Positions 8,600 through 36,161 are shown, counted from the first letter of the stretch. The stretch is 64,000 nt of DNA from an uncultured Haliea sp. (GCA_913061145.1 CAJXUQ010000003.1:123208-187207); one strand, 5' to 3'. The notes: a model not told the origin generated them from the sequence alone. Made by a program: numbers and translations.

Positions 8600-10510
8600 T
8601 CACAGCGTGGCGGGCTGATACCAGACAGGCGAGCTCCAGGCACGTTCCTGCACCACCGGCCGGTGTTCCGCTGCGCAGCACCCTTCGAAGCCTTCGCCAA
8701 TGGTCTCGGGACGACTGCAATCGACACCCCCGGCAACACACAGGCGCTGGCTCCAGCGACAGCTGGGATTCTCAATCACCCGGCTGTAATAAAAGGCGCG
8801 CTGAGCCGGGTCGAAATCCGGGTCGCGCCAGACCGTGCACAAGCTCGCATGCCCCGTACCCGTCGTAGCACAGCTGCGCGTGTCAACGCTGCCCCGGGGC
8901 TCGGCGTCACCCACGACATCATAAACCTGTTCGTGGCGCTCACCCGCGGCGTCAAGCCACCCCTTCACGACCTGGATCTTCTGCAGGGGCAACCCGGGTT
9001 CCGCGTCCACACCCGCATCCTGCTGGGCTGCCAGCAACAGCGTCAGGCCGGCGCCGGCCGGTGCGGGCCCAAGCTCCGAACCCATCGGCACGCCCTGCGC
9101 GTATCCCTGCGCCGCCATGTCGGGCGCGGCGCAAAGCGCCGGTTGTAGATCAAAGCCCGCAAACAGGCGGCTGATGATACGTGGACCGCTGGTGCCGTAG
9201 GCCTCACGACGTTGCATGGCGGCAAACAGTGCGTCCCGGGTGTTCTGTTCTGCCCAGATCACCGCCAGACCACCCGGGTTGTATTCCAGTTTATCGGGCA
9301 GTCCGGGAGGAACCGCCTTGAGGGCAGGCACGCCATCCCCTCCGTGCCCCAGAAAACGCGATTCCGAGACTGCGCCGGGGGCGCCGAGGTGGGTATCCGT
9401 ACTCGCAATCACGCCGAACTGGAAGGGATTGACTCCAAGCTGTTCCTCCTGGGACAGGCCCTGCTGCCAGGTATCGCGCAGGAAGCCGGTATCGGGCTGC
9501 GGCGGCGTGTTGAAGCGCGCGATATTGTCGCGCGGCAATTGCTCGAACGCACACAACTCGTCACGGGTGACGCCGGGGGCATAGAAACACTCGGACGCGC
9601 CCTTGTGCTGCATGATTTCAACCAGCGGTTCCATCCGTTGACGCTGCGCCGCGTAATCAGCGTCCAGCGGACTGCCATCAGGGCGCTGCAAGGCGAACAT
9701 CTGGCCGGCGCTGAGATTGGAGTTATGCGGAATCACCAGCGCTTCACAGCCGCTCCCGCTGTCATTACACTCGGTTTCCAGCGCATCCCAGAGCAGGGTT
9801 TCCCCGGGCGTATCGATGTAGCTCACTGGCAGCTCGGGCACCTCACCACTGCGAAAGACGACATTGCGATGCAGATTGCCGCCGGTCGGCGGTGCCACAC
9901 CGGTCCACTCGTAACCGATGAATGTAGTAAACGCGCAGGCGCTGCTGCGGTCATTGTAGCTCTCTGCCGCGTCGCGCATCTCCTGCCACGGTGCCAGGGC
10001 CGCCTCGCGACACAACTCGCCATCCTCGCCGCAGAGACCCAGGTGGGAGGCACGCATGGCGGCCATGTAATTGAACAGATAGAACGCGCCACGCGGCCAC
10101 GCCCGGTAGAAACGGCACTGCCAGCTGTTATGGCCGCTAACATCCGGGTTATTACACATCTCCACTTCGCCAATCAGTTCCGCGTGGTCAGACACCATGG
10201 CAAAATCCAGCGGCCGCGCCAGTTGCAGGGAACGTTGTGCGGTGCCGTCTGCATGCCAGGGTTGCACACCGATGCGCTCACCCCGTGCGAACTGGTAGGC
10301 TTCAGCAGGCGTGGTCTGCGTCCCCTGAGTGCTGGCATCCAGCGAGTAGCGGGTATGCACATGCAGGTCGCCAAAAAAAGGCCGCTTCTCGGGCGTAAAA
10401 TGGTCGCAGCGCTCGCCAGACTGCAGAGCGGAAAGCTGTGGACTGAGCCCAAGCAGGCCCACCACGGCCAAACCCTTTACAACACGACGCGCGATATGGA
10501 TGTGCAGCAC
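8600..10510 (-). CDS. DUF3604-like secreted PHP-type metallohydrolase of unknown function
   Basis: FFGDLHVHTRYSLDA, LDFAMVSDHAE, NLHRNVVF, IPHNSN, STDTH and ERAWSSPVWY motifs after a signal-like N-terminus. Start moved to GTG 10510 (AAGGGA SD) because the longer ORF begins at the csp terminator. Confidence 0.8.
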   Translation of the reverse strand: MLHIHIARRVVKGLAVVGLLGLSPQLSALQSGERCDHFTPEKRPFFGDLHVHTRYSLDASTQGTQTTPAEAYQFARGERIGVQPWHADGTAQRSLQLARPLDFAMVSDHAELIGEVEMCNNPDVSGHNSWQCRFYRAWPRGAFYLFNYMAAMRASHLGLCGEDGELCREAALAPWQEMRDAAESYNDRSSACAFTTFIGYEWTGVAPPTGGNLHRNVVFRSGEVPELPVSYIDTPGETLLWDALETECNDSGSGCEALVIPHNSNLSAGQMFALQRPDGSPLDADYAAQRQRMEPLVEIMQHKGASECFYAPGVTRDELCAFEQLPRDNIARFNTPPQPDTGFLRDTWQQGLSQEEQLGVNPFQFGVIASTDTHLGAPGAVSESRFLGHGGDGVPALKAVPPGLPDKLEYNPGGLAVIWAEQNTRDALFAAMQRREAYGTSGPRIISRLFAGFDLQPALCAAPDMAAQGYAQGVPMGSELGPAPAGAGLTLLLAAQQDAGVDAEPGLPLQKIQVVKGWLDAAGERHEQVYDVVGDAEPRGSVDTRSCATTGTGHASLCTVWRDPDFDPAQRAFYYSRVIENPSCRWSQRLCVAGGVDCSRPETIGEGFEGCCAAEHRPVVQERAWSSPVWYQPATL

Positions 10511-10615
10511 ACTGTAGTCCCTTTGCGTTAACCGGGCCTCACGATAGAGCCTGAACGGCAGGCGGGCAAACGCCCTGTGCGCAGAATTTGAACCGACGTT
10601 GTCGTTTTCAGCCAC

Positions 10616-10648
10616 AAAAAAACCCGCGACGTTGCCGGCGCGGGTTTT
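10616..10648 (-). terminator. Rho-independent terminator of the csp gene
   Basis: Minus strand AAAACCCGCG-loop-CGCGGGTTTTTTT directly downstream of the csp stop. Confidence 0.85.
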
Positions 10649-10667
10649 CTGCAGAACCGTGTCGGCG

Positions 10668-10868
10668 TTAGACGACGACGATGTTTTCTGCCTGCGGGCC
10701 TTTCTGGCCCTGAGTGATGTTGAATTCGACTTTCTGACCTTCGATCAGCGTCTTGAAGCCAGAGCCGGAGATTGCGCTGAAGTGCGCGAATACGTCCGGG
10801 CCAGATTCCTGCTCGATAAAGCCAAAGCCTTTCGTTTCGTTAAACCATTTTACGGTGCCGGTAGCCAT
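10668..10868 (-). CDS. cspA: Cold-shock protein (CspA family)
   Basis: [18 protein letters not shown] (RNP1) and DVFAHFSAI (RNP2), 66 aa. The exact paralog name is uncertain. Confidence 0.95.
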
Positions 10869-11019
10869 GATGCGTTCCTGTATTTCAGGTAGAGATTAAC
10901 CCTCGTGAGGGCGGTAAGGCTTGAGGTAGTGCAATTACTTATGAAAACAGGGACGAGGTACTAACTGCGGACTTCGAAATGGTATACATAAATAGGTGTA
11001 AAACGTTCAAGCAGAACCA

Positions 11020-11047
11020 AGTATACAGCAGTTGTTAACGCGGTCAA
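11020..11047 (-). promoter_or_regulatory. Sigma70-type promoter of csp with a long AT-rich 5' UTR
   Basis: Minus strand TTGACC (11047-11042), 16-nt spacer, TATACT (11025-11020). This implies a leader of about 145 nt, typical of csp mRNAs. Confidence 0.6.
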
Positions 11048-11051
11048 CGGT

Positions 11052-12125
11052 TTATTCCCGGTCGTCGGCAAGGCCATCTGTGTCGCTGCCCCTGTGCCGG
11101 GTGCGCCAGGCGCCAGGCGTTGCGCCCTCCCAGCGCAGGAAGGCACGGCGGAACGTGGCCGCATCGGCGAAACCCAGCTGCTGGGCAATATCGACGACCG
11201 GGCGGTCCGACTCCCGCAGCGCATCGCAGGCGGCGGCGCGTACCGCCTCGGCCCGCAGCTGGCGATAGCCCGTTCCCGCCGCCCGCAGTCGCTGCCGGAA
11301 CGTTGACAGACTCAACCCCAGGTCTTCCGCCAGGCGCGCCTGACCGGGCAGGGACACACCCTGACGCAGGGCGGCCGCAAGCAATGCACTGACCTGCTCA
11401 GCCAGTCCGCGCCCGCGCGGACCGAATACCTCGCAGGGAAAACAGGCAAAGAATGCGGGAAACTCGGCGGGGGTGCGGACCACAGGCATCGACAGCGCAG
11501 TGCGTGGAAAATCCAGTGCGTAGCCCTCCCCGCCCGCGAGCACCGGCGCCTTGAACAGGCGCAGAAACGGCAGTACGTCCTCCCGTCGTAACGGACCAAT
11601 TCGCACCCTTTGCAGCGGCAGGGTGCGCCCCGCCAGCCACTGCAGGAGCTGAAAATAGGCAAACAAGCCGGTGATATCCACCAGGCTACTGGCGCTGCTG
11701 ACCTGGGGGCGCAGTGAATCCAGTCGAAATGTGGCGTGTTCCGGGTGCAGTTCCAAGCCAATGCGTCCGGCACGCGGATACAGCAGGGCCGCGAATTGTG
11801 CGCAGAGCTGGATCGCCTCCTCGAGGTTGCGGGCGGACAACGCCAGGCGACACTGCAATTCGACTTCGCTGCGCGACATCGGGCCGTGGTTCTGCTCTTC
11901 GCTCAGGCGCTGCTCGAGGCGTTGCACGGCCGACAGGTACCAGGCGGTGAACTGCACGAGGTTGGTTGGGGGACGATGCTGTTCACGGGCATCACCTCCG
12001 CGCCGCAATTCGGCGGCCAGCAACGCCACCAGCGGCGCAAACGTATCACTGGTCAGGGCACCGGTACCCGCCTGAGAGGTGGGTATCGGTGCCGATCGGC
12101 TGGCGGTACGAGGTGGTCTGTTCAT
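11052..12125 (-). CDS. AraC family transcriptional regulator
   Basis: C-terminal double HTH: LAEDLGLSLSTFRQRL and IAQQLGFADAATFRRAFLRWEGATPGAWR. Confidence 0.9.
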   Translation of the reverse strand: MNRPPRTASRSAPIPTSQAGTGALTSDTFAPLVALLAAELRRGGDAREQHRPPTNLVQFTAWYLSAVQRLEQRLSEEQNHGPMSRSEVELQCRLALSARNLEEAIQLCAQFAALLYPRAGRIGLELHPEHATFRLDSLRPQVSSASSLVDITGLFAYFQLLQWLAGRTLPLQRVRIGPLRREDVLPFLRLFKAPVLAGGEGYALDFPRTALSMPVVRTPAEFPAFFACFPCEVFGPRGRGLAEQVSALLAAALRQGVSLPGQARLAEDLGLSLSTFRQRLRAAGTGYRQLRAEAVRAAACDALRESDRPVVDIAQQLGFADAATFRRAFLRWEGATPGAWRTRHRGSDTDGLADDRE

Positions 12126-12229
12126 GGCGTTTCCGGAGGGGGATCATGCCACTTAACATTAATGCATTATTTAAAGACAATAAAGCACCCTTGCGACGCG
12201 CAGTGATCGCGTAAGCTGCTGCTCACACT

Positions 12230-13723
12230 TTGATGACGGATGACAGTACCATGCCTGAAAAACAGCCTCGCATAATCGTCCTTGGTGCCGGTATGGCCGG
12301 GATACTCGCCGGGATTCGCCTGCAGCAAATGGACTACCGGAACGTCACGCTCTACGAAAAGGCAGACAGGGTGGGCGGCACCTGGCGCGAGAACACCTAC
12401 CCTGGCCTGACCTGCGATGTGCCCTCACACTTCTACACCTACAGCTTTGAGCGCAATCCGGACTGGACGAGACACCTGCCTCCAGGGCCGGAAATCCAGG
12501 CGTACTTTGAGCGCACGGCGCAGAAATACGGTATCAACGCGCTGACCCGCTTCGGTGAAGAATGTACCGAAGCCACCTACCGGGATGGTCGTTGGCACCT
12601 CCAGTTCGCCAGTGGTCATCGAGACAGCGCAGATATCCTGATTGCAGCCACCGGGGTTCTGCATCATCCCAAATACCCTGACATCTCCGGTGCCAGCACA
12701 TTCCAGGGCGCTCTCTTCCACAGCGCACGCTGGGATCACAGCGTGCCCCTTGAAGGCAGACGTATCGGCATCATCGGCAACGGCTCTACCGGCGTGCAGA
12801 TTGTCTCGGCGCTGGCCGGAAAAGCCGGCCTGCTGGAGCACTACCAGCGCACGCCGCAGTGGATCATGCCTGTTGAAAATGGACGTTTCAGCGCAGAGGA
12901 GCGCGCTGCATTTCGCGATCCCGCGGTGCTGGCCAAGGCGATGAATGTCGACGAGTACATGGCCTCCGTAGAGGCGTATACCCAGTCCATTACCGATATC
13001 GACTCAGAGGCCTCGCAAGCCATGGCACAGGCCTGTCGCGACAATCTCGAGCATTCCGTCGCCGACCCCGTGCTACGTGAACAACTGCGCCCCGACCACC
13101 TGCCGCTGTGCAAGCGCCTGGTGTTCTCCCCCGATTACTATCAGGCGATACAGCATCCACAATCCCGCCTGGTCAGCACCGGCATCCAACAGATTGAAGC
13201 CACCGGTATACGCACTGTCGATGGCGAACTGCACGAGCTGGACGTTATCGTTTTCGCTACCGGTTTCCACGCGGATGCCTTTATGCGGCCCATGGCCATC
13301 ACTGGACGCGACGGTGTGTCGCTGGCCGACTTCTGGCATGACCGCCCCAAGGCCTACCTGGCGGTCACCATGCCAGGCTTTCCCAATCTGTTTATGCTGA
13401 ACGGACCCAATGGTCCCGTGGGCAATTTTTCCCTGATCGACATCGCCGAGCACCAGTGGGGTTATATCGAGCGCCTGATGGCGCGGCTGGATGCCGGCGA
13501 CTGTACTGAAGTGGAGCCCAGCCTGGCGGCGATGGAGGCTTTCGAAACCGAACGGGTGGAGGCGGCGAAGCGCACGGTGTGGTATCGCGGCGGTTGCGTA
13601 AGCTGGTACCTGGACGCCGAGGGCATACCCTCCAGCTGGCCCTGGAATTTCCAGCGCTTCGTCGACAGTATGGCGGAGCCCGACTGGGTGGCCTTCGGCC
13701 TGCCGGCACCCCTGGAAACGTGA
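12230..13723 (+). CDS. Baeyer-Villiger-type flavin monooxygenase
   Basis: GAGMAG, GGTWRENTYPGLTCD, BVMO fingerprint FQGALFHSARW and second Rossmann motif GNGSTG. Confidence 0.9.
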   Translation: MMTDDSTMPEKQPRIIVLGAGMAGILAGIRLQQMDYRNVTLYEKADRVGGTWRENTYPGLTCDVPSHFYTYSFERNPDWTRHLPPGPEIQAYFERTAQKYGINALTRFGEECTEATYRDGRWHLQFASGHRDSADILIAATGVLHHPKYPDISGASTFQGALFHSARWDHSVPLEGRRIGIIGNGSTGVQIVSALAGKAGLLEHYQRTPQWIMPVENGRFSAEERAAFRDPAVLAKAMNVDEYMASVEAYTQSITDIDSEASQAMAQACRDNLEHSVADPVLREQLRPDHLPLCKRLVFSPDYYQAIQHPQSRLVSTGIQQIEATGIRTVDGELHELDVIVFATGFHADAFMRPMAITGRDGVSLADFWHDRPKAYLAVTMPGFPNLFMLNGPNGPVGNFSLIDIAEHQWGYIERLMARLDAGDCTEVEPSLAAMEAFETERVEAAKRTVWYRGGCVSWYLDAEGIPSSWPWNFQRFVDSMAEPDWVAFGLPAPLET

Positions 13724-13724
13724 T

Positions 13725-15185
13725 ATGAGTCGCTATCGGCAGGACTGGGAACCGCTGCTCACCGAACTTCGCGCGCGCAGCGAAGCGGCGACGGCCATGG
13801 GCGGTGAAGCACGTATCGCGCGACAGCACGCCCGCAATCGGCTCACGGCGCGGGAGCGCATTACGGCCCTGGTCGATGAAGACTCCTTCCGCGAATACGG
13901 CCTGCTCGCTGCCGGACATCACCCCCAGGGAGAACCGGCGATTGCTGCCGATGGACTCGTCGGCGGGGTGGCACGCCTGGACGGACGACCCGTGGTCCTG
14001 CTGGTGGAAGACTTTACGGTCCAGGGCGGCTCGATAGGCCACCCCAACGCCGCCAAGCGTGCGCGGCTGGTGCGCCTGGCACTCGAGAAGCGGCACCCGC
14101 TCCTGCTGCTCCTCGATGGTGCCGGCGAGCGGGCGAGCAACCAGGGAGAGCGCTATCCGCATGCGCCCGGCGATCTGCAGCTGCTGGCGGATATTCAGGG
14201 GACCATCCCGGTGGTGGCGCTGGTACTCGGCATGTCCGCCGGACACGGTGCGCTGGCCGCGATGTTTGCCGATATTGTCATCATGCAGCAGGACAGCGCC
14301 CTGTTCAGTGCAGGGCCACCGCTGGTCAAGGCCGCGATGGGTATCGACACCACCGCCGAGGAGCTCGGTTCCGCACACATGCACACACGTGACAGCGGTG
14401 TGGCTCACCTGTGCTGCGCCAACGAGGCTGAGTGTTTTGAGCGTGCCCGCCATTTCCTCCACATGGTCTGCGAGCCTGCTGCCGAAGCGGCAGCAGCTGG
14501 CGAGACCGCCGCCACAGGCGACAGCGATGCCCTGTTGGACATCATTCCCCCGGACGTCTCCCGCCCCTACGACATGCGCAAGGTGCTCGGTGAGCTGGTC
14601 GATCCGGGCAGCCTGCTGGAATTGCAGCCGGATTTCGGCCGCACGCTGATCACGGCGCTCGCCCGCATCGGTGACCAGCGCTGCCTGATTGTCGCCAACC
14701 AGCCGGCGGTTGAAGCCGGCGCGATCACCCGACACGCCGCAGAGAAAGCCTGCCACTTTATCGACATGGCGCACCGCTTCAGCCTGCCGCTGATCATGCT
14801 GGTCGACAACCCCGGCGTCATGCCCGGGCCAGCGGCTGAACGCTCTGGTGTATTGCGCGCCGCCGGGAACATGTTCAGTGCACAGCGACGCTTCCGCGGG
14901 CGCAAGATTGTGGTCACACTGCGCAAGGCCTTCGGCTTCGGCAGCTCGGTGATGGGCATGAACCCCTGGGACCGGCAAACGGTCAGCCTGGCACTGCCGG
15001 GGGTGAGTCTGGGCGGAGTGCCAGCCCTGGGGGCGGCGGCCGCCACAGGCGCCAGTGCCGTCGACGCCGCCGCACTGCGGGAGCGCCAGACAGGTGCCTG
15101 GGCCGGTGCCGACAATATGGCATTTGATCGCGTTATCGATCCCCGTCAGTTACGCGCCGAACTGATCCAGGCGCTGCTGGACTGA
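13725..15185 (+). CDS. Acyl-CoA carboxylase carboxyltransferase subunit (divergent)
   Basis: [42 protein letters not shown] and VTLRKAFG motifs of the PccB/AccD family. Confidence 0.85.
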
Positions 15186-15229
15186 TTCGACGGCAGGCAG
15201 AGGCACCCACCTGCGGTATACTGCCCGCA

Positions 15230-17035
<1,806 letters not shown>

Positions 17036-17115: not shown

Positions 17116-18300
17116 ATGAGCAGCAGAATTCCCCGTTCCAACGACAACGACTACAGTGCCGAGATCATCGCCCAGCGGCAGTCCTTCATCGAAGAAAAGA
17201 CGGGGGCGCAGCTGAATCACACGCGGCAGTATTCATTTGATCCGCAGGACATGTCTGGCAACATTGAAAACCTGTTTGGTGTGGCCCAGGTACCCATCGG
17301 CCTCGCGGGGCCCCTGTTGATCGACGGCGAGCACGCCCAGGGGGAGTTCTATGTCCCGATGGCCACTGTGGAGGGTACCATGCTGGCCAGCTACAACCGG
17401 GGTATGAAAGTCATCCGTGAAAGCGGTGGTGTCAAGACCACGGTCTGCGGCGAGGCGATGCAGCGCGCGCCCTGCTTCGTGTTCCGCGATGCCCGCGACG
17501 CGCGGGATTTCAACCTCTGGCTGGATGAGCACTTTACCGCCATCAAAGCCGTTGCGGAAAGCACCACCTCCGTCGGCAAGCTCAACGAGATTGAACACTA
17601 CATTGCACACAACATGGTCTTCACCCGGTTTGACTACAGTACGGGTGATGCAGCGGGCCAAAACATGACCAGCAAGGCCACCTTTGTCGCCTGTGAGTGG
17701 ATACGCGAGCGCTTTCCGCAAATGCGTCACTACCTGCTCTCCGGCAATTTCGACACCGAGAAGCGCACCTCGTCAGTGAACTCCCTGAAGGGGCGCGGCC
17801 GCCGCGTGACCGCTGAAATCACCGTACCCCGCGATGTGCTGCAATCGCATCTGCGTATCACACCCGAGGCGATGCACTATGGTTGGGGCATTACCACCGT
17901 CGCTTCCTTTCTCACTCACTCTTCCAATAACGCTGCACACCCGGCCAACGGACTCGCCGCACTGTATCTGGCAACCGGGCAGGATATCGCCAACATCGGC
18001 GAGTCCAACCAGTGCAGCGTGTACACCCGCGTCACCCGCGAGGGGGATTACTTCTTCTCCATCACCCTGCCGGCACTGATTCTCGCCACCTACGGGGGCG
18101 GCACCAACCTGCCCACACAGCGTGAATGCCTGGAGATCATGGGCTGTCATGGCCAGGGCAAGGCCCTGAAGCTGGCGGAAATTGCCGCGGGACTGGTGGT
18201 CGCGGGAGAGCTGTCCCTGGGCGCAGCCACGCGGGTGGACAAGGAAACCCGGCAGAATGAGTGGGTGAACGCACACGAGCGACTGGGGCGCAATCGCTGA
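17116..18300 (+). CDS. Hydroxymethylglutaryl-CoA reductase, class I (archaeal/eukaryotic type)
   Basis: GNIENLFG, VPMATVEG, TGDAAGQNM, GNFDTEKR, TGQDIA, YGGGT and C-terminal HERLGR. GAGGA SD precedes ATG 17116. Confidence 0.88.
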   Translation: MSSRIPRSNDNDYSAEIIAQRQSFIEEKTGAQLNHTRQYSFDPQDMSGNIENLFGVAQVPIGLAGPLLIDGEHAQGEFYVPMATVEGTMLASYNRGMKVIRESGGVKTTVCGEAMQRAPCFVFRDARDARDFNLWLDEHFTAIKAVAESTTSVGKLNEIEHYIAHNMVFTRFDYSTGDAAGQNMTSKATFVACEWIRERFPQMRHYLLSGNFDTEKRTSSVNSLKGRGRRVTAEITVPRDVLQSHLRITPEAMHYGWGITTVASFLTHSSNNAAHPANGLAALYLATGQDIANIGESNQCSVYTRVTREGDYFFSITLPALILATYGGGTNLPTQRECLEIMGCHGQGKALKLAEIAAGLVVAGELSLGAATRVDKETRQNEWVNAHERLGRNR

Positions 18301-18321: not shown

Positions 18322-18340
18322 GCGGGCCCGATGGGCCCGC
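18322..18340. terminator. GC hairpin after HMG-CoA reductase
   Basis: gcgggccc-gat-gggcccgc is a perfect 8-bp stem with no U-tract. Confidence 0.35.
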
Positions 18341-32348: not shown

Positions 32349-33251
32349 CTACGACCCACCCCAGCGCCTCTCAATCACCCACACCAGCGCAAAGCCAAAC
32401 ACCATCAGAATCAGGCAGGTTAGCAGCCAGGGGTCGTCGGCAAACTGCCAGGGTAGTACCGGCACCTGCTGCGCGGGGCGCGGCACACCATCGCTGCCGA
32501 GCACCCAGTCCAGCGGATGTTTCCAGGGCCATACAACGAGCAGTGACCCGAACAGGAAACCGGTCAACAGCGCCATGGTCGCCGCGTGGTAGCGCCGCAA
32601 CAGCCAGTGCAGCACGCGGGAAAAGCACATCAGGCCCAGGCCGGCACCCAGCGCAAACACCAGCATAACGGCCAGCTCAAGGTTCTTCACGGCATGCAGG
32701 ACGGTCGAGTACATGCCCAGGAGGATGAGAATGAAACTGCCGGATATGCCCGGGAGTATCATCGCGCAGATGGCGATAAACCCGGCAATGAACACTGCGG
32801 GGAGTCCCGTGGGAAGCGCCACTACAGGACTCAGCGCGATCGCCGCCGCCACGCCGAGCCCAATGATCAGGCACAACACGCGGGCCGTGCTCCAATGCGG
32901 TACCTGCCGCAGCAGCACCAGTGCCGAGGCCAGTATCAGGCCGAAGAAAAACGCCCAGAGCGGCACCGGGTATGCCTCCAGCAACCAAGCGATGACCCGG
33001 GCCAGAGACAGGATGCTGGTTGCTATGCCCGCGACCAGCGTGAGCAGAAACGCGCCGTCAACATGCACCCAGGCGCGCCGCAGGTCACCGCGATGCAGCA
33101 GGCGCAGGAGCGGTAGATCAAAGGCGCGGATACTCCCCAGCAGGCGATCGTAGATGCCAGTGATGAATGCCATGGTGCCACCCGACACACCGGGCACAAT
33201 ATCCGCTGCGCCCATCAGGACCCCGCGAAGAAACACACCCAGTGGCGTCAT
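32349..33251 (-). CDS. DUF368 family membrane protein (undecaprenyl-phosphate translocase family)
   Basis: Repeated motifs GAADIVPGVSGGTMAFITG and CAMILPGISGS, multiple TM helices. Confidence 0.88.
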   Translation of the reverse strand: MTPLGVFLRGVLMGAADIVPGVSGGTMAFITGIYDRLLGSIRAFDLPLLRLLHRGDLRRAWVHVDGAFLLTLVAGIATSILSLARVIAWLLEAYPVPLWAFFFGLILASALVLLRQVPHWSTARVLCLIIGLGVAAAIALSPVVALPTGLPAVFIAGFIAICAMILPGISGSFILILLGMYSTVLHAVKNLELAVMLVFALGAGLGLMCFSRVLHWLLRRYHAATMALLTGFLFGSLLVVWPWKHPLDWVLGSDGVPRPAQQVPVLPWQFADDPWLLTCLILMVFGFALVWVIERRWGGS

Positions 33252-33918: not shown

Positions 33919-34966
33919 TGCGCCCCTCACGCTCCCTGTACCCTTCCCTGTAATTCAGTATTTCCGCCAGCAAGGCGGTCGCATAGCTGCCCGGCGGTAA
34001 ATGAAACGTCAACAGCAACGACCCATCATCACAAAAGCGCCACGAAAAGTCATCCGGCAGAAGTCGCGCAGGGCGATATGCCAGGCTTAAACCCGCCTGC
34101 TCCAGAAACTCGCAGACACCCGCCTGGGGCGCCAGCAGGGCCTTCTGCGCCGCGACCAGCGCGGGGCTCTGCAGGCTCTCGCCGCCGCCCCAGAGTGGCA
34201 GCCCGGGATGGACATCGCCCGCCGCGGCGCGCTGCTGCAACGCGGCATCCAGTTCGGTACAGGGGAACAGGCTGCGACTGCCCTGCAGCTGGCAGACGTC
34301 GCCCTGCTGCAGGCGCTCCCAGGTGCCGTCTTGTACCCGCTGCGCCAACAGGCGGTTGAACAGGTCGCTGCGCAATGCCGACAGAAACAGGCCTCGCTTG
34401 CTGTGGCTCAACTTGCGCGCGCCGCGCAGCATCCACGCCTGGGCCTGTAACAGCGTCCCGCCGTCACGCCCGAAACGCTGCTCGCCAAAGTAGTTGGGGA
34501 CGCCACGGTCGCGAATACGCTCCAGCGCTGACACCACGCCCTCCATATCCCCCTGCACATCCCGCAGGCGCAGTGCAAACGCGTTGCTCCGATGCACGCC
34601 GCGCTTGAGCTTGCGCGAATGACGCTGGCACTCCAGTACAGTGACCTCGTCGGTCACCTGGAGGCGCTGCCAGTCGGGCTCAGGCTTGCCGGCCATGCGC
34701 ACGCTGAGCCACTGGCGGGTGACCGCGTTCCGGTCCTTCAGACCACTGAAGCCAATATCTCGGGGATGGATGCCCGCCAGGGATGACACACGCTGCACCA
34801 GATCCGCGGTATTCAGTCCCCGCTTCTCGATATAGAGGAACACGTGCTCGCCCTGCCCATCAGGAACGAAGCCCAACTGCTCGGACACCCGGAAGTCCTC
34901 GGGCACACTGCGTATGATCGCCGTCGCGTCAGCGATGGGCCCAACGCGACCGAGTTCGGGATTCAT
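33911..34966 (-). CDS. truD: tRNA pseudouridine(13) synthase TruD
   Basis: [31 protein letters not shown] and LPPGSYAT motifs. Confidence 0.96.
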
Positions 34967-35445
34967 GCGTGAGCAATACCCTGCAGCAGCACCACCGCGT
35001 GCGCCGCTATCCCTTCGCCACGGCCGGTAAAGCCCAGTTTTTCGGTCGTGGTGGCCTTGACGTTGACCTGCCCCACAGCCACGCGCAGGTCGGCGGCCAG
35101 GTTCACCTGCATCGCGGGTATGTGGGCCGCCATGCGCGGCGCCTCCGCGACCAGCGTGGTGTCTGCGTTGACCAATTGCCAGCCCTGGGCAAACACCTGT
35201 TCAACCACGCGGCGCAGCAAGATACGGCTGTCGATCGCGGCAAACGCCGGGTCGCTGTCCGGGAAGTGCCGGCCGATATCTCCAGCACCCACCGCACCGA
35301 GCAAGGCATCACAGAGTGCGTGGATCAGTACGTCGCCGTCCGAGTGCGCCACAAGGCCCTGGGTATGGGGGATGCTGACACCGCCCAGCACCACACCACT
35401 GCCGGGGCCGAAACGATGCACATCAAAGCCGTGTCCGATTCGCAT
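34963..35445 (-). CDS. ispF: 2-C-methyl-D-erythritol 2,4-cyclodiphosphate synthase
   Basis: [16 protein letters not shown] and [16 protein letters not shown]. Confidence 0.97.
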
Positions 35446-35450
35446 TGCGC

Positions 35451-36161
35451 TCACTCCCGCCCTCCGTCGGCGATACCCAGGTAAAAAGCCGCCAGTTCAA
35501 GATCGCCGGGGACCGTCACCTTGAAGTTGCGTGGCGACCCGGACACCACCCGTACCGGGTGCCCCCCCCACTCCATGGCGGAGGCTTCATCGGTCACAGC
35601 AACGCCGGCCGCCAGGGCCGCCAACAGCGCCTGCTGCAGCGGCAGCAGCGGGAACATCTGGGGTGTCTGGGCACGCCAGAGGCCGCGGCGATCGACGGTG
35701 GCCTGCACCAGGCCATCGGCACCCACGCGCTTCAGCGTGTCGACCAGCGGTTCCGCCAGAAGCCCACCGCCGCCGTGCGCCAGCACCTCGGACACCAGAC
35801 GCTCCCCGTCTGCCGGGCTCAGGCAGGGACGCGCCGCATCGTGCACCAGCACCCAGTCATCTTCATATGCAATTTTTTGCAAAAAGTGCAACGCGGCCAG
35901 CACGGAATCGGCGCGCTGCACCCCACCGGCTACGACGTGTACGCGCTCATCCCTGTCGCGAAAGTCCGACGCTCTGGGGTCATCAGCCGCAAGGGCAATG
36001 ACAACGCCCAGCATGCCCGGGAGCCGTAACAGGGCGTCAAGGCTGTGCTCCAGCAGGGTCTTGCCACCCAGCAGCCGATGCTGCTTGGGTTCGGACAGGC
36101 CCATGCGCGAGCCGCTTCCCGCCGCAGGGATCACCCCCCAACACCGAGCCACCTCGCTCAC
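35451..36161 (-). CDS. ispD: 2-C-methyl-D-erythritol 4-phosphate cytidylyltransferase
   Basis: [27 protein letters not shown] and NFKVT. Confidence 0.96.

Follow-up and report, generated by a model that had tools for sequence, protein, structure and literature searches.

FcrA and the canonical HMG-CoA reductases

The secondary "class I HMG-CoA reductase" (HMGR; HMG is short for hydroxymethylglutaryl) found in Halobacteriales and in many bacteria makes up a monophyletic clade known as FcrA (Grossi et al., 2025, ISME J, PMC11948995). The enzyme of 'Ca. Promineifilum breve' (Pb-FcrA) was assayed and that of Natronomonas pharaonis was modelled; with NADPH, Pb-FcrA turns acyl-CoA of at least C14 into fatty alcohol, whereas HMG-CoA is not reduced, and simvastatin does not inhibit the enzyme (PMC11948995). 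FcrA keeps the catalytic tetrad and the flap helix of HMGR, and its acyl pocket is altered. Lys735 (human numbering; printed as Lys795), which forms a salt bridge to the HMG carboxylate in HMGR (PMC9500038; PMC7503714), is lost, with replacements described as "generally small"; every FcrA has a bulky residue in place of Leu862, and N. pharaonis FcrA has Glu (Glu360) in place of Ser684 (PMC11948995). FcrA makes up 57-77% of the bacterial "class I HMGRs" (PMC11948995). The present work concerns a stretch of 64,000 nucleotides from an uncultured Haliea sp. (GCA_913061145.1 CAJXUQ010000003.1:123208-187207), referred to throughout as the window, which carries an HMGR-like gene at positions 17116..18300. 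Judging from its sequence, this gene probably (at roughly 0.6) encodes an FcrA-type acyl-CoA reductase that forms alcohols and is not an HMG-CoA reductase.

Correct annotation is the main value of this assignment. The window protein and hundreds of its relatives are publicly named "hydroxymethylglutaryl-CoA reductase (NADPH)", a name which wrongly implies mevalonate metabolism in bacteria that have only the methylerythritol phosphate (MEP) pathway. The kind of enzyme has been known since 2025, and the finding is a re-annotation with a modest question of specificity attached.

The gene and its predicted product

The gene is an intact open reading frame of 394 amino acids, with an ATG at 17116 and a stop codon at 18298-18300. 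A GAGGA sequence lies 8-12 nt 5' of the ATG, and 80 nt separate the stop codon of recQ from the ATG. The gene and its four catalytic positions, aligned with human and archaeal HMGR, are as follows.

17116..18300, + strand: fcrA-like gene, 394 amino acids, class I HMGR fold (Pfam, HMMER, AlphaFold2, Foldseek)
17371..17373, + strand: Glu86, equivalent to human Glu559, catalytic, in MATVE(G) (HMMER alignment to human and archaeal HMGR)
within 17758..17766, + strand: Lys216, equivalent to human Lys691, catalytic, in the cis-loop GNFDTEKR (HMMER and profile alignment)
17983..17985, + strand: Asp290, equivalent to human Asp767, catalytic, in GQDIA (alignment)
18274..18276, + strand: His387 (human His866), a catalytic residue carried by the flap helix, in HERLGR (alignment)

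Relatives of the protein are annotated as hydroxymethylglutaryl-CoA reductase, and Pfam PF00368 matches its full length with 388 bits. The best solved relative is the class I HMGR 6HR7 of Methanothermococcus thermolithotrophicus (E 6e-83), and human HMGR gives E 5e-60, whereas class II chains in the Protein Data Bank reach only about 1e-6. The AlphaFold2 prediction, for which 38 sequences were aligned, has a mean pLDDT (per-residue confidence) of 91.5. Foldseek superposes it on 6HR7/6HR8 with a TM (structural similarity) score of 0.88-0.91 and on human HMGR with 0.86-0.90, at 33-41% identity to canonical class I HMGRs in the structural alignments. In the predicted model, His387 is borne by a helix of residues 382-390, which is joined to the helix of residues 350-371 by a loop (372-381).

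An earlier note on this DNA had described a class I HMGR gene with the Glu, Lys, Asp and His positions apparently in place, and this holds: Glu86, Lys216, Asp290 and His387 align with the human residues and are invariant across both homologue alignments (A1, A2). The motifs quoted there (MATVEG, GNFDTEKR, GQDIA, HERLGR and DAAGQNM) are all present. When human ligand-contact residues were mapped onto the homologues, with residue roles taken from PMC7503714 and PMC9500038, the CoA contacts Ser565, Asn567 and Arg568 (human numbering) proved to be kept in the window protein, which indicates a CoA thioester substrate. The HMG-pocket residues Arg590, Ser684 and Asn755 are kept as well, and Lys692 is present as Arg.

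Divergent pocket and cofactor residues

The positions at which the protein departs from canonical HMGR, or which are informative in FcrA, are listed below.

17647..17667, + strand: DAAGQNM, residues 178-184, in place of DAMGMNM in the cofactor loop, a mark of the non-canonical clade
17740..17742, + strand: Ser209, equivalent to human Ser684, kept (Glu in N. pharaonis FcrA) (HMMER and profile alignment)
17758..17766, + strand: Glu215-Lys216-Arg217, equivalent to human Asp690-Lys691-Lys692, cis-loop (alignment)
17890..17892, + strand: Ile259, at the position of human Lys735, with loss of the salt bridge to the HMG carboxylate (four alignments)
18241..18258, + strand: KETRQN (residues 376-381), an insert of six residues in the loop that leads to the C-terminal flap helix
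18262..18264, + strand: Trp383, at the position of human Leu862, where a bulky residue is an FcrA hallmark (alignment)

The equivalence of Ile259 and Lys735 was found in two independent pairwise HMMER alignments, a profile alignment and a MAFFT alignment. Loss of this lysine is general in the clade, as 182/183 of the DAxGQ-type sequences sampled lack it. Trp383 lies in EWVNAH, where canonical sequences read HL..AH or DLARAH, and 160 of the 161 non-gap DAxGQ-type rows in the sampled set have Trp or Phe in the Leu862 column. The Ser684 column is more variable, with Glu in 88 sampled clade members, Ser in 68 (about one-third) and Asp in 14.

The cofactor site is also remodelled, since six of the nine S-domain NADPH contacts are changed in the window protein (S626T, R627S, F628V, M655A, M657Q and V805Y). 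Gln occupies the Met657 position in 183/230 sampled sequences, and the clade signature consists of DAAGQNM for DAMGMNM, Tyr for Val805 and the loss of Lys735. The earlier note had seen the variant cofactor motif and cis-loop and had treated them as minor; the variants are there, but they are the diagnostic motifs. R627S was considered as a sign of NADH use and of a catabolic role and was dropped, as Ser is also found in the Lad-type proteins related to Pb-FcrA, which depends on NADPH. Two changes are lineage markers. D690E (Glu215) is confined to the Halieaceae orthologues, called type A here, and the six-residue insert is found in all type A copies and, in a similar form, in two deltaproteobacterial sequences from metagenome-assembled genomes (MAGs). 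The NCBIfam equivalog model for HMGR, TIGR00533, gives the window protein 327 bits, under its cut-off of 441.8, and the class II model TIGR00532 gives 33.9 bits against a cut-off of 260.

Wider family and phylogeny

A scan of one genome per species returned more than 593 related loci across many phyla. Proteins 53-57% identical to the window protein occur outside Halieaceae in Acidobacteriota, Desulfobacterota, Actinomycetota, Chloroflexota, Bacteroidota, Calditrichota and many Proteobacteria, and its nearest relatives are bacterial, not archaeal. The view on which the earlier note had relied, of a class I HMGR with only sporadic bacterial occurrence, is thus out of date, most of the bacterial members now being assigned to FcrA (PMC11948995). 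The nearest representatives at 50% identity mostly lacked a cluster name. For orphan class I HMGRs, whether in Vibrio or in gammaproteobacteria, the literature search found nothing specific.

The phylogeny that had been proposed as a check (IQ-TREE) places the window protein in a fully supported bacterial clade with the canonical class I HMGRs outside it. Type A forms a 100/100 clade on a long stem (0.36 in this tree, 0.31-0.36 overall), sister (98/96) to the two deltaproteobacterial MAG sequences that have the similar C-terminal insert. It lies within a 100/100 clade of 31 rows together with a paralogue, type B, and with proteins of about 513 amino acids from Chloroflexota, Calditrichota and Acidobacteriota. 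The 513-residue members from Chloroflexota and Calditrichota carry an extra N-terminal domain, PF25653 (Lad), as described for Pb-FcrA. Pb-FcrA and N. pharaonis FcrA are not rows of this tree, and the position of Pb-FcrA is a presumed one, based on domain architecture and taxonomy; Pb-FcrA was not among the best 120 matches to a Lad-type query. Neighbour clustering of 80 loci from many phyla gave no conserved partner gene, only a loose enrichment of short-chain dehydrogenase/reductase (SDR), acyl-CoA ligase, hydratase and dehydrogenase genes, each in at most nine loci.

Two further groups of HMGR-like proteins were encountered in the family. Many metagenomic proteins of about 900 amino acids (P0157, P0161, P0165 and similar) have an HMGR-like domain fused to a C-terminal kinase domain of the APH/choline-kinase/EcKL type; in their HMGR-like domain His752 is replaced by Asn and Ser684 by Glu, and Lys735 is lost. 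Another group, of 500-750 amino acids with long N-terminal extensions (P0138, P0141, P0150, P0182 and similar), has Ile or Val in place of Arg590 and Arg in place of Ser684, apparently a swapped arginine.

Independence from the mevalonate pathway

The source assembly comprises 3.52 Mb in 53 contigs and is 97.8% complete. Its nearest public record is Halieaceae bacterium UBA5044 (99% identity), and named relatives at 80-92% identity belong to Haliea, Pseudohaliea, Congregibacter and Parahaliea. The window gene is the single PF00368 match in the whole genome. Neither HMG-CoA synthase (HMGS), whether bacterial or archaeal in type, nor mevalonate kinase, nor diphosphomevalonate decarboxylase was found in a genome-wide search of this 97.8% complete assembly; archaeal-type HMGS was searched with TIGR00748 and NF003274, PF08540 being insensitive for it. 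Two genes of the MEP pathway lie in the window itself.

35451-36161, - strand: ispD, above the NCBIfam cut-off
34963-35454, - strand: ispF, above the NCBIfam cut-off

Dxs, IspH and Dxr are encoded elsewhere in the genome. The two halves of dxr stand at two contig ends (G000:C4:194222-194785 and G000:C36:3-467), which is an assembly break and not a broken gene. The earlier note was therefore right that no mevalonate gene adjoins the window gene and that the gene is an orphan in an organism using the MEP pathway.

The same separation is seen across the clade. Mevalonate kinase exceeded its cut-off in 0/61 sampled Halieaceae genomes; among 47 genomes of other phyla with a DAAGQNM-type gene, 39 gave no kinase match at 1e-30. 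Eleven genomes were examined for their HMGR complement, with mevalonate kinase over the cut-off in six, just below it in four and present only as a weak match in one (Saprospiraceae). A separate HMGR, of class II or canonical class I, is present in all 11 and adjoins mevalonate-pathway genes in nine, so that the DAAGQNM clade represents a paralogue with its own function. One Chloroflexota genome has a class II HMGR next to archaeal-type HMGS and thiolase, and a second has one without an identified pathway neighbour. In three genomes a class II HMGR adjoins mevalonate kinase and seems to be fused with it; in a fourth, from Anaerolineales, the class II HMGR lies on another contig. The Saprospiraceae genome has its class II HMGR beside an IDI2-like gene. 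The class I HMGR found beside the kinase in four Thermoanaerobaculia has a canonical 19-position signature, including Lys735, DAMGMNM and Val805. This comparison provides independent support for the published FcrA proposal.

A side observation concerns loci at which class II HMGR (394-432 bits) and mevalonate kinase (231-265 bits) share one frame of about 750-800 amino acids (L131:1072-3345, + strand; L132:653-2899, - strand; also G079:C99:77441-79576). The hosts are a Pseudomonadales MAG and a Calditrichota MAG, with apparently the same in a Woeseiaceae MAG, and the frames look like fused proteins.

Distribution in Halieaceae and lipid setting

Homologues matching PF00368 are present in 46/61 sampled Halieaceae genomes, representing 31/40 genera. 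With the window protein as query, a type A orthologue was found in 44/61 genomes at 71-95% identity, equal to or above the identity of the adjacent recQ; five genomes have two type A copies. Conservation of this degree points to strong purifying selection on the gene. The gene is old in the family, because it occurs in 44/61 genomes, has the G+C content of its genome and forms one 100/100 clade; any lateral transfer predates Halieaceae, and the lateral acquisition that had been suggested earlier does not stand as a recent event in this genome. In metatranscriptome runs of two studies, contigs match the gene at 99-100% identity; this hints only weakly at transcription, since contigs alone prove neither transcription nor operon structure.

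The type B paralogue (52-57% identity) occurs in seven Halieaceae genomes, and a type C (41%) in one. Type B genes (L026-L030; for example L029:9344-10519, with neighbours at 10586-15753) have consistent neighbours, namely one or two TonB-dependent receptors together with a thiolase, a regulator of the AraC type and a ketosynthase-like gene. These surroundings suggest that the role of type B is coupled to substrate uptake.

Halieaceae are rich in homologues of wax ester synthase/diacylglycerol acyltransferase (WS/DGAT), which occur in 57/61 genomes, with five in the source genome and up to 27 elsewhere. Very high copy numbers have likewise been reported for Halioglobus (PMC10351704). An AcrB-type reductase is present in the source genome (G000:C1:251563-252252) and in 40/61 genomes. 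Among the four genomes without WS/DGAT, three also lack both reductases, although these are small numbers and related genomes. In one relative (G020), recQ, type A, a PLD-like gene and WS/DGAT lie in this order, all within 3.4 kb. Linkage of WS/DGAT and reductase within 25 kb, seen in about five genomes, was considered and set aside as not clearly above chance, given 2-27 WS/DGAT copies per genome.

Possible functions of the window enzyme

As an FcrA-clade enzyme, the window protein would be a soluble, single-domain reductase that derives from class I HMGR and has kept its chemistry. Two successive hydride transfers from NAD(P)H to a CoA thioester would proceed via the Glu/Lys/Asp/His tetrad and the closing C-terminal helix, and the remodelled acyl pocket would direct the enzyme to convert (fatty) acyl-CoA into primary alcohol instead of HMG-CoA into mevalonate. 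The resulting fatty alcohols would most likely go into neutral or other lipids, for example wax esters made by the five WS/DGAT homologues. Beside the AcrB-type reductase, the enzyme would constitute a second alcohol route, kept apart from the isoprenoid synthesis run by the MEP pathway. Absence of the mevalonate pathway is what an FcrA-type identity leads one to expect, and the non-isoprenoid role put forward in the earlier note is still the best reading. With the fold, catalytic residues, membership of the 100/100 clade, pocket substitutions, lack of a mevalonate pathway and family-wide conservation all observed, we infer the substrate, reaction direction and physiological product of the enzyme.

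Several points weigh against a long-chain FcrA function. The presence of AcrB means that FcrA is not required for wax esters, and type A does not strictly track WS/DGAT or AcrB across Halieaceae; fcrA is often found without WS/DGAT (PMC11948995). In the window, no fadD, WS/DGAT or other lipid gene adjoins the gene, unlike the FcrA system. Unlike FcrA, the protein has no N-terminal Lad or acyl carrier protein domain, and it keeps Ser684 (as Ser209) where the FcrAs that were characterised or modelled have Glu. The long stem of type A, the change of Asp690 to Glu and the insert before the flap helix, in which it differs from FcrA, leave room for a shift of substrate, and 12/59 modelled putative FcrAs have small pockets that may hold smaller molecules (PMC11948995). 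It is therefore a real alternative, if a good deal less likely than the FcrA function, that type A is a lineage-specific offshoot of the FcrA clade which acts with the same chemistry, perhaps in either direction, on another CoA thioester, such as a shorter, branched or hydroxylated acyl-CoA released when lipids or terpenoids are broken down. D690E and the insert are fixed across the long-stemmed Halieaceae lineage that keeps Ser684, and the duplicate type A genes of five genomes, together with type B near TonB receptors, AraC and thiolase genes, suggest substrate diversification. The neighbours seen in the wider clade (SDRs, acyl-CoA ligases, enoyl-CoA hydratases and acyl-CoA dehydrogenases) are of a kind that would suit such a role. 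However, no conserved partner gene for a pathway of this sort was found, presence of the SnoaL-like neighbour does not follow that of the gene, contexts differ between genera, and the hydrophobic pair Ile259 and Trp383 suits an alkyl chain, as in FcrA. The narrower proposal that type A has been neofunctionalised towards a CoA thioester that is not long-chain, for example a polar or shorter acyl-CoA, is put forward only tentatively, with a similarly low probability.

Retention of the tetrad, Arg590, Ser684, Asn755 and Lys692 as Arg could also be read as the mark of a true HMG-CoA/mevalonate oxidoreductase working outside isoprenoid synthesis. Such an enzyme might oxidise mevalonate to HMG-CoA for cleavage by HMG-CoA lyase, as with mvaAB of Pseudomonas mevalonii, or might reduce HMG-CoA arising from leucine catabolism, and a liu-type cluster of the genome does include a gene for HMG-CoA lyase (464 bits against a cut-off of 246). 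This is unlikely, because the Lys735 salt bridge is lost and Trp in place of Leu862 is proposed to keep out the branched HMG group, and the assayed Pb-FcrA did not reduce HMG-CoA (PMC11948995). Genomes with a mevalonate pathway have a separate HMGR, which lies beside pathway genes in 9/11 genomes; the window gene is linked neither to the lyase nor to any transporter that is conserved along with it, and its product scores below the TIGR00533 cut-off. Mevalonate scavenging and reduction of another branched (HMG-like) acyl-CoA, both suggested earlier, become improbable on the same two substitutions (Lys735 to Ile, Leu862 to Trp), which are those of the HMG-CoA-inactive FcrA. That the gene has no mevalonate pathway to serve could finally mean that an archaeal HMGR was acquired laterally and that only a decaying or non-functional remnant is left. 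Conservation effectively refutes this, with an intact frame, invariant catalytic residues and 71-95% identity in 44/61 genomes; the structure model is confident, the nearest relatives are bacterial, and the near-identical metatranscriptome contigs of two studies add a weak sign in the same direction. The FcrA-type acyl-CoA reductase is thus preferred.

If this assignment is right, an FcrA-type reductase in 44/61 genomes would represent a second fatty-alcohol route in Halieaceae (the OM60/NOR5 clade), which are abundant coastal bacteria with very many genes for wax-ester and triacylglycerol synthases, and would bear on marine lipid storage and carbon cycling. The Halieaceae subclade that retains Ser684 and bears the insert is a sensible place to look for divergence of substrate range within FcrA. 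Should the substrate have shifted, types A and B would be uncharacterised acyl-CoA/alcohol oxidoreductases of HMGR fold in these same coastal bacteria.

Genomic surroundings

The gene order around the locus is AraC regulator, flavin monooxygenase, carboxyltransferase, recQ, window gene, SnoaL-like gene, AbgT transporter, ABC exporter, recX and recA, with no mevalonate-pathway gene among these neighbours. The arrangement of recQ upstream and the SnoaL-like gene downstream of the orthologue recurs in several Halieaceae genera. We claim no functional link to either, as recQ is a housekeeping gene and, over the 61 genomes, the SnoaL-like gene and the reductase do not co-vary. A promoter and terminator scan between recQ, the window gene and the SnoaL-like gene called nothing. 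One feature was read from the sequence downstream of the gene.

18322..18340, + strand: GC-rich hairpin with an 8-bp stem and a 3-nt loop, without a T-run

It lies 22 nt past the stop codon and was not called by the terminator scan; it may mark the end of the transcript.

Upstream of recQ, 12230-15185 (+) encodes a flavin monooxygenase of Baeyer-Villiger-like type and a carboxyltransferase-domain protein that stands alone, with no biotin carboxylase partner nearby, and the AraC regulator at 11052-12125 (-) is divergent from this pair. The three-gene arrangement is kept 5' of recQ in several Halieaceae genera (L014, L018, L022 and L032). A DUF3604 protein of 671 amino acids (561 bits) is encoded next to the AraC regulator at 8600-10615 (-). 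A homologue of a polyprenyl-phosphate transporter that was named recently, at 32349-33251 (-), reaches 357 bits with NF052564, just under the 400-bit cut-off, and sits in the ispDF-truD-pcm...rpoS region. Outside the window, the liu-type cluster (L038:9576-13275, on contig G000:C33) comprises genes for HMG-CoA lyase, the alpha subunit of methylcrotonyl-CoA carboxylase (MCCase) and methylglutaconyl-CoA hydratase and reaches the contig end; on that contig, dxs is about 6 kb distant.

Comparison with known systems

Canonical class I HMGRs (EC 1.1.1.34; 6HR7/6HR8 and human 1DQA) share with the window protein the fold (TM 0.86-0.91), the catalytic tetrad, the CoA contacts, the cis-loop Lys and the C-terminal His-bearing helix. 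The window protein differs from them in having Ile at Lys735 and Trp at Leu862 and in falling below the TIGR00533 cut-off, and the bacterial class I HMGRs adjacent to mevalonate kinase keep the Lys735 that it lacks. Pseudomonas mevalonii MvaA and the HMGR of Burkholderia cenocepacia are likewise HMGR-family enzymes of proteobacteria without isoprenoid synthesis by the mevalonate route, but they are of class II and act on true HMG-CoA/mevalonate substrates, with mvaA in linkage with mvaB, which encodes the lyase. AcrB (Maqu_2507-type) and FarA (Maqu_2220-type) carry out the four-electron reduction of acyl-CoA to alcohol and the feeding of WS/DGAT that are proposed for the window protein, although their fold is unrelated (Rossmann SDR / NAD_binding_4).

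FcrA is the closest described system. It has in common with the window protein the class I HMGR fold, the Glu/Lys/Asp/His residues, the loss of Lys735, an aromatic Trp at Leu862 and the DAAGQNM-type cofactor loop, as well as a host without a mevalonate pathway and with WS/DGAT. The replacement of Lys735 differs in kind, in that Ile259 is hydrophobic but not small. Over the catalytic domain the window protein is about 53-56% identical to the Lad-domain proteins of Chloroflexota, with which it shares a strongly supported clade.

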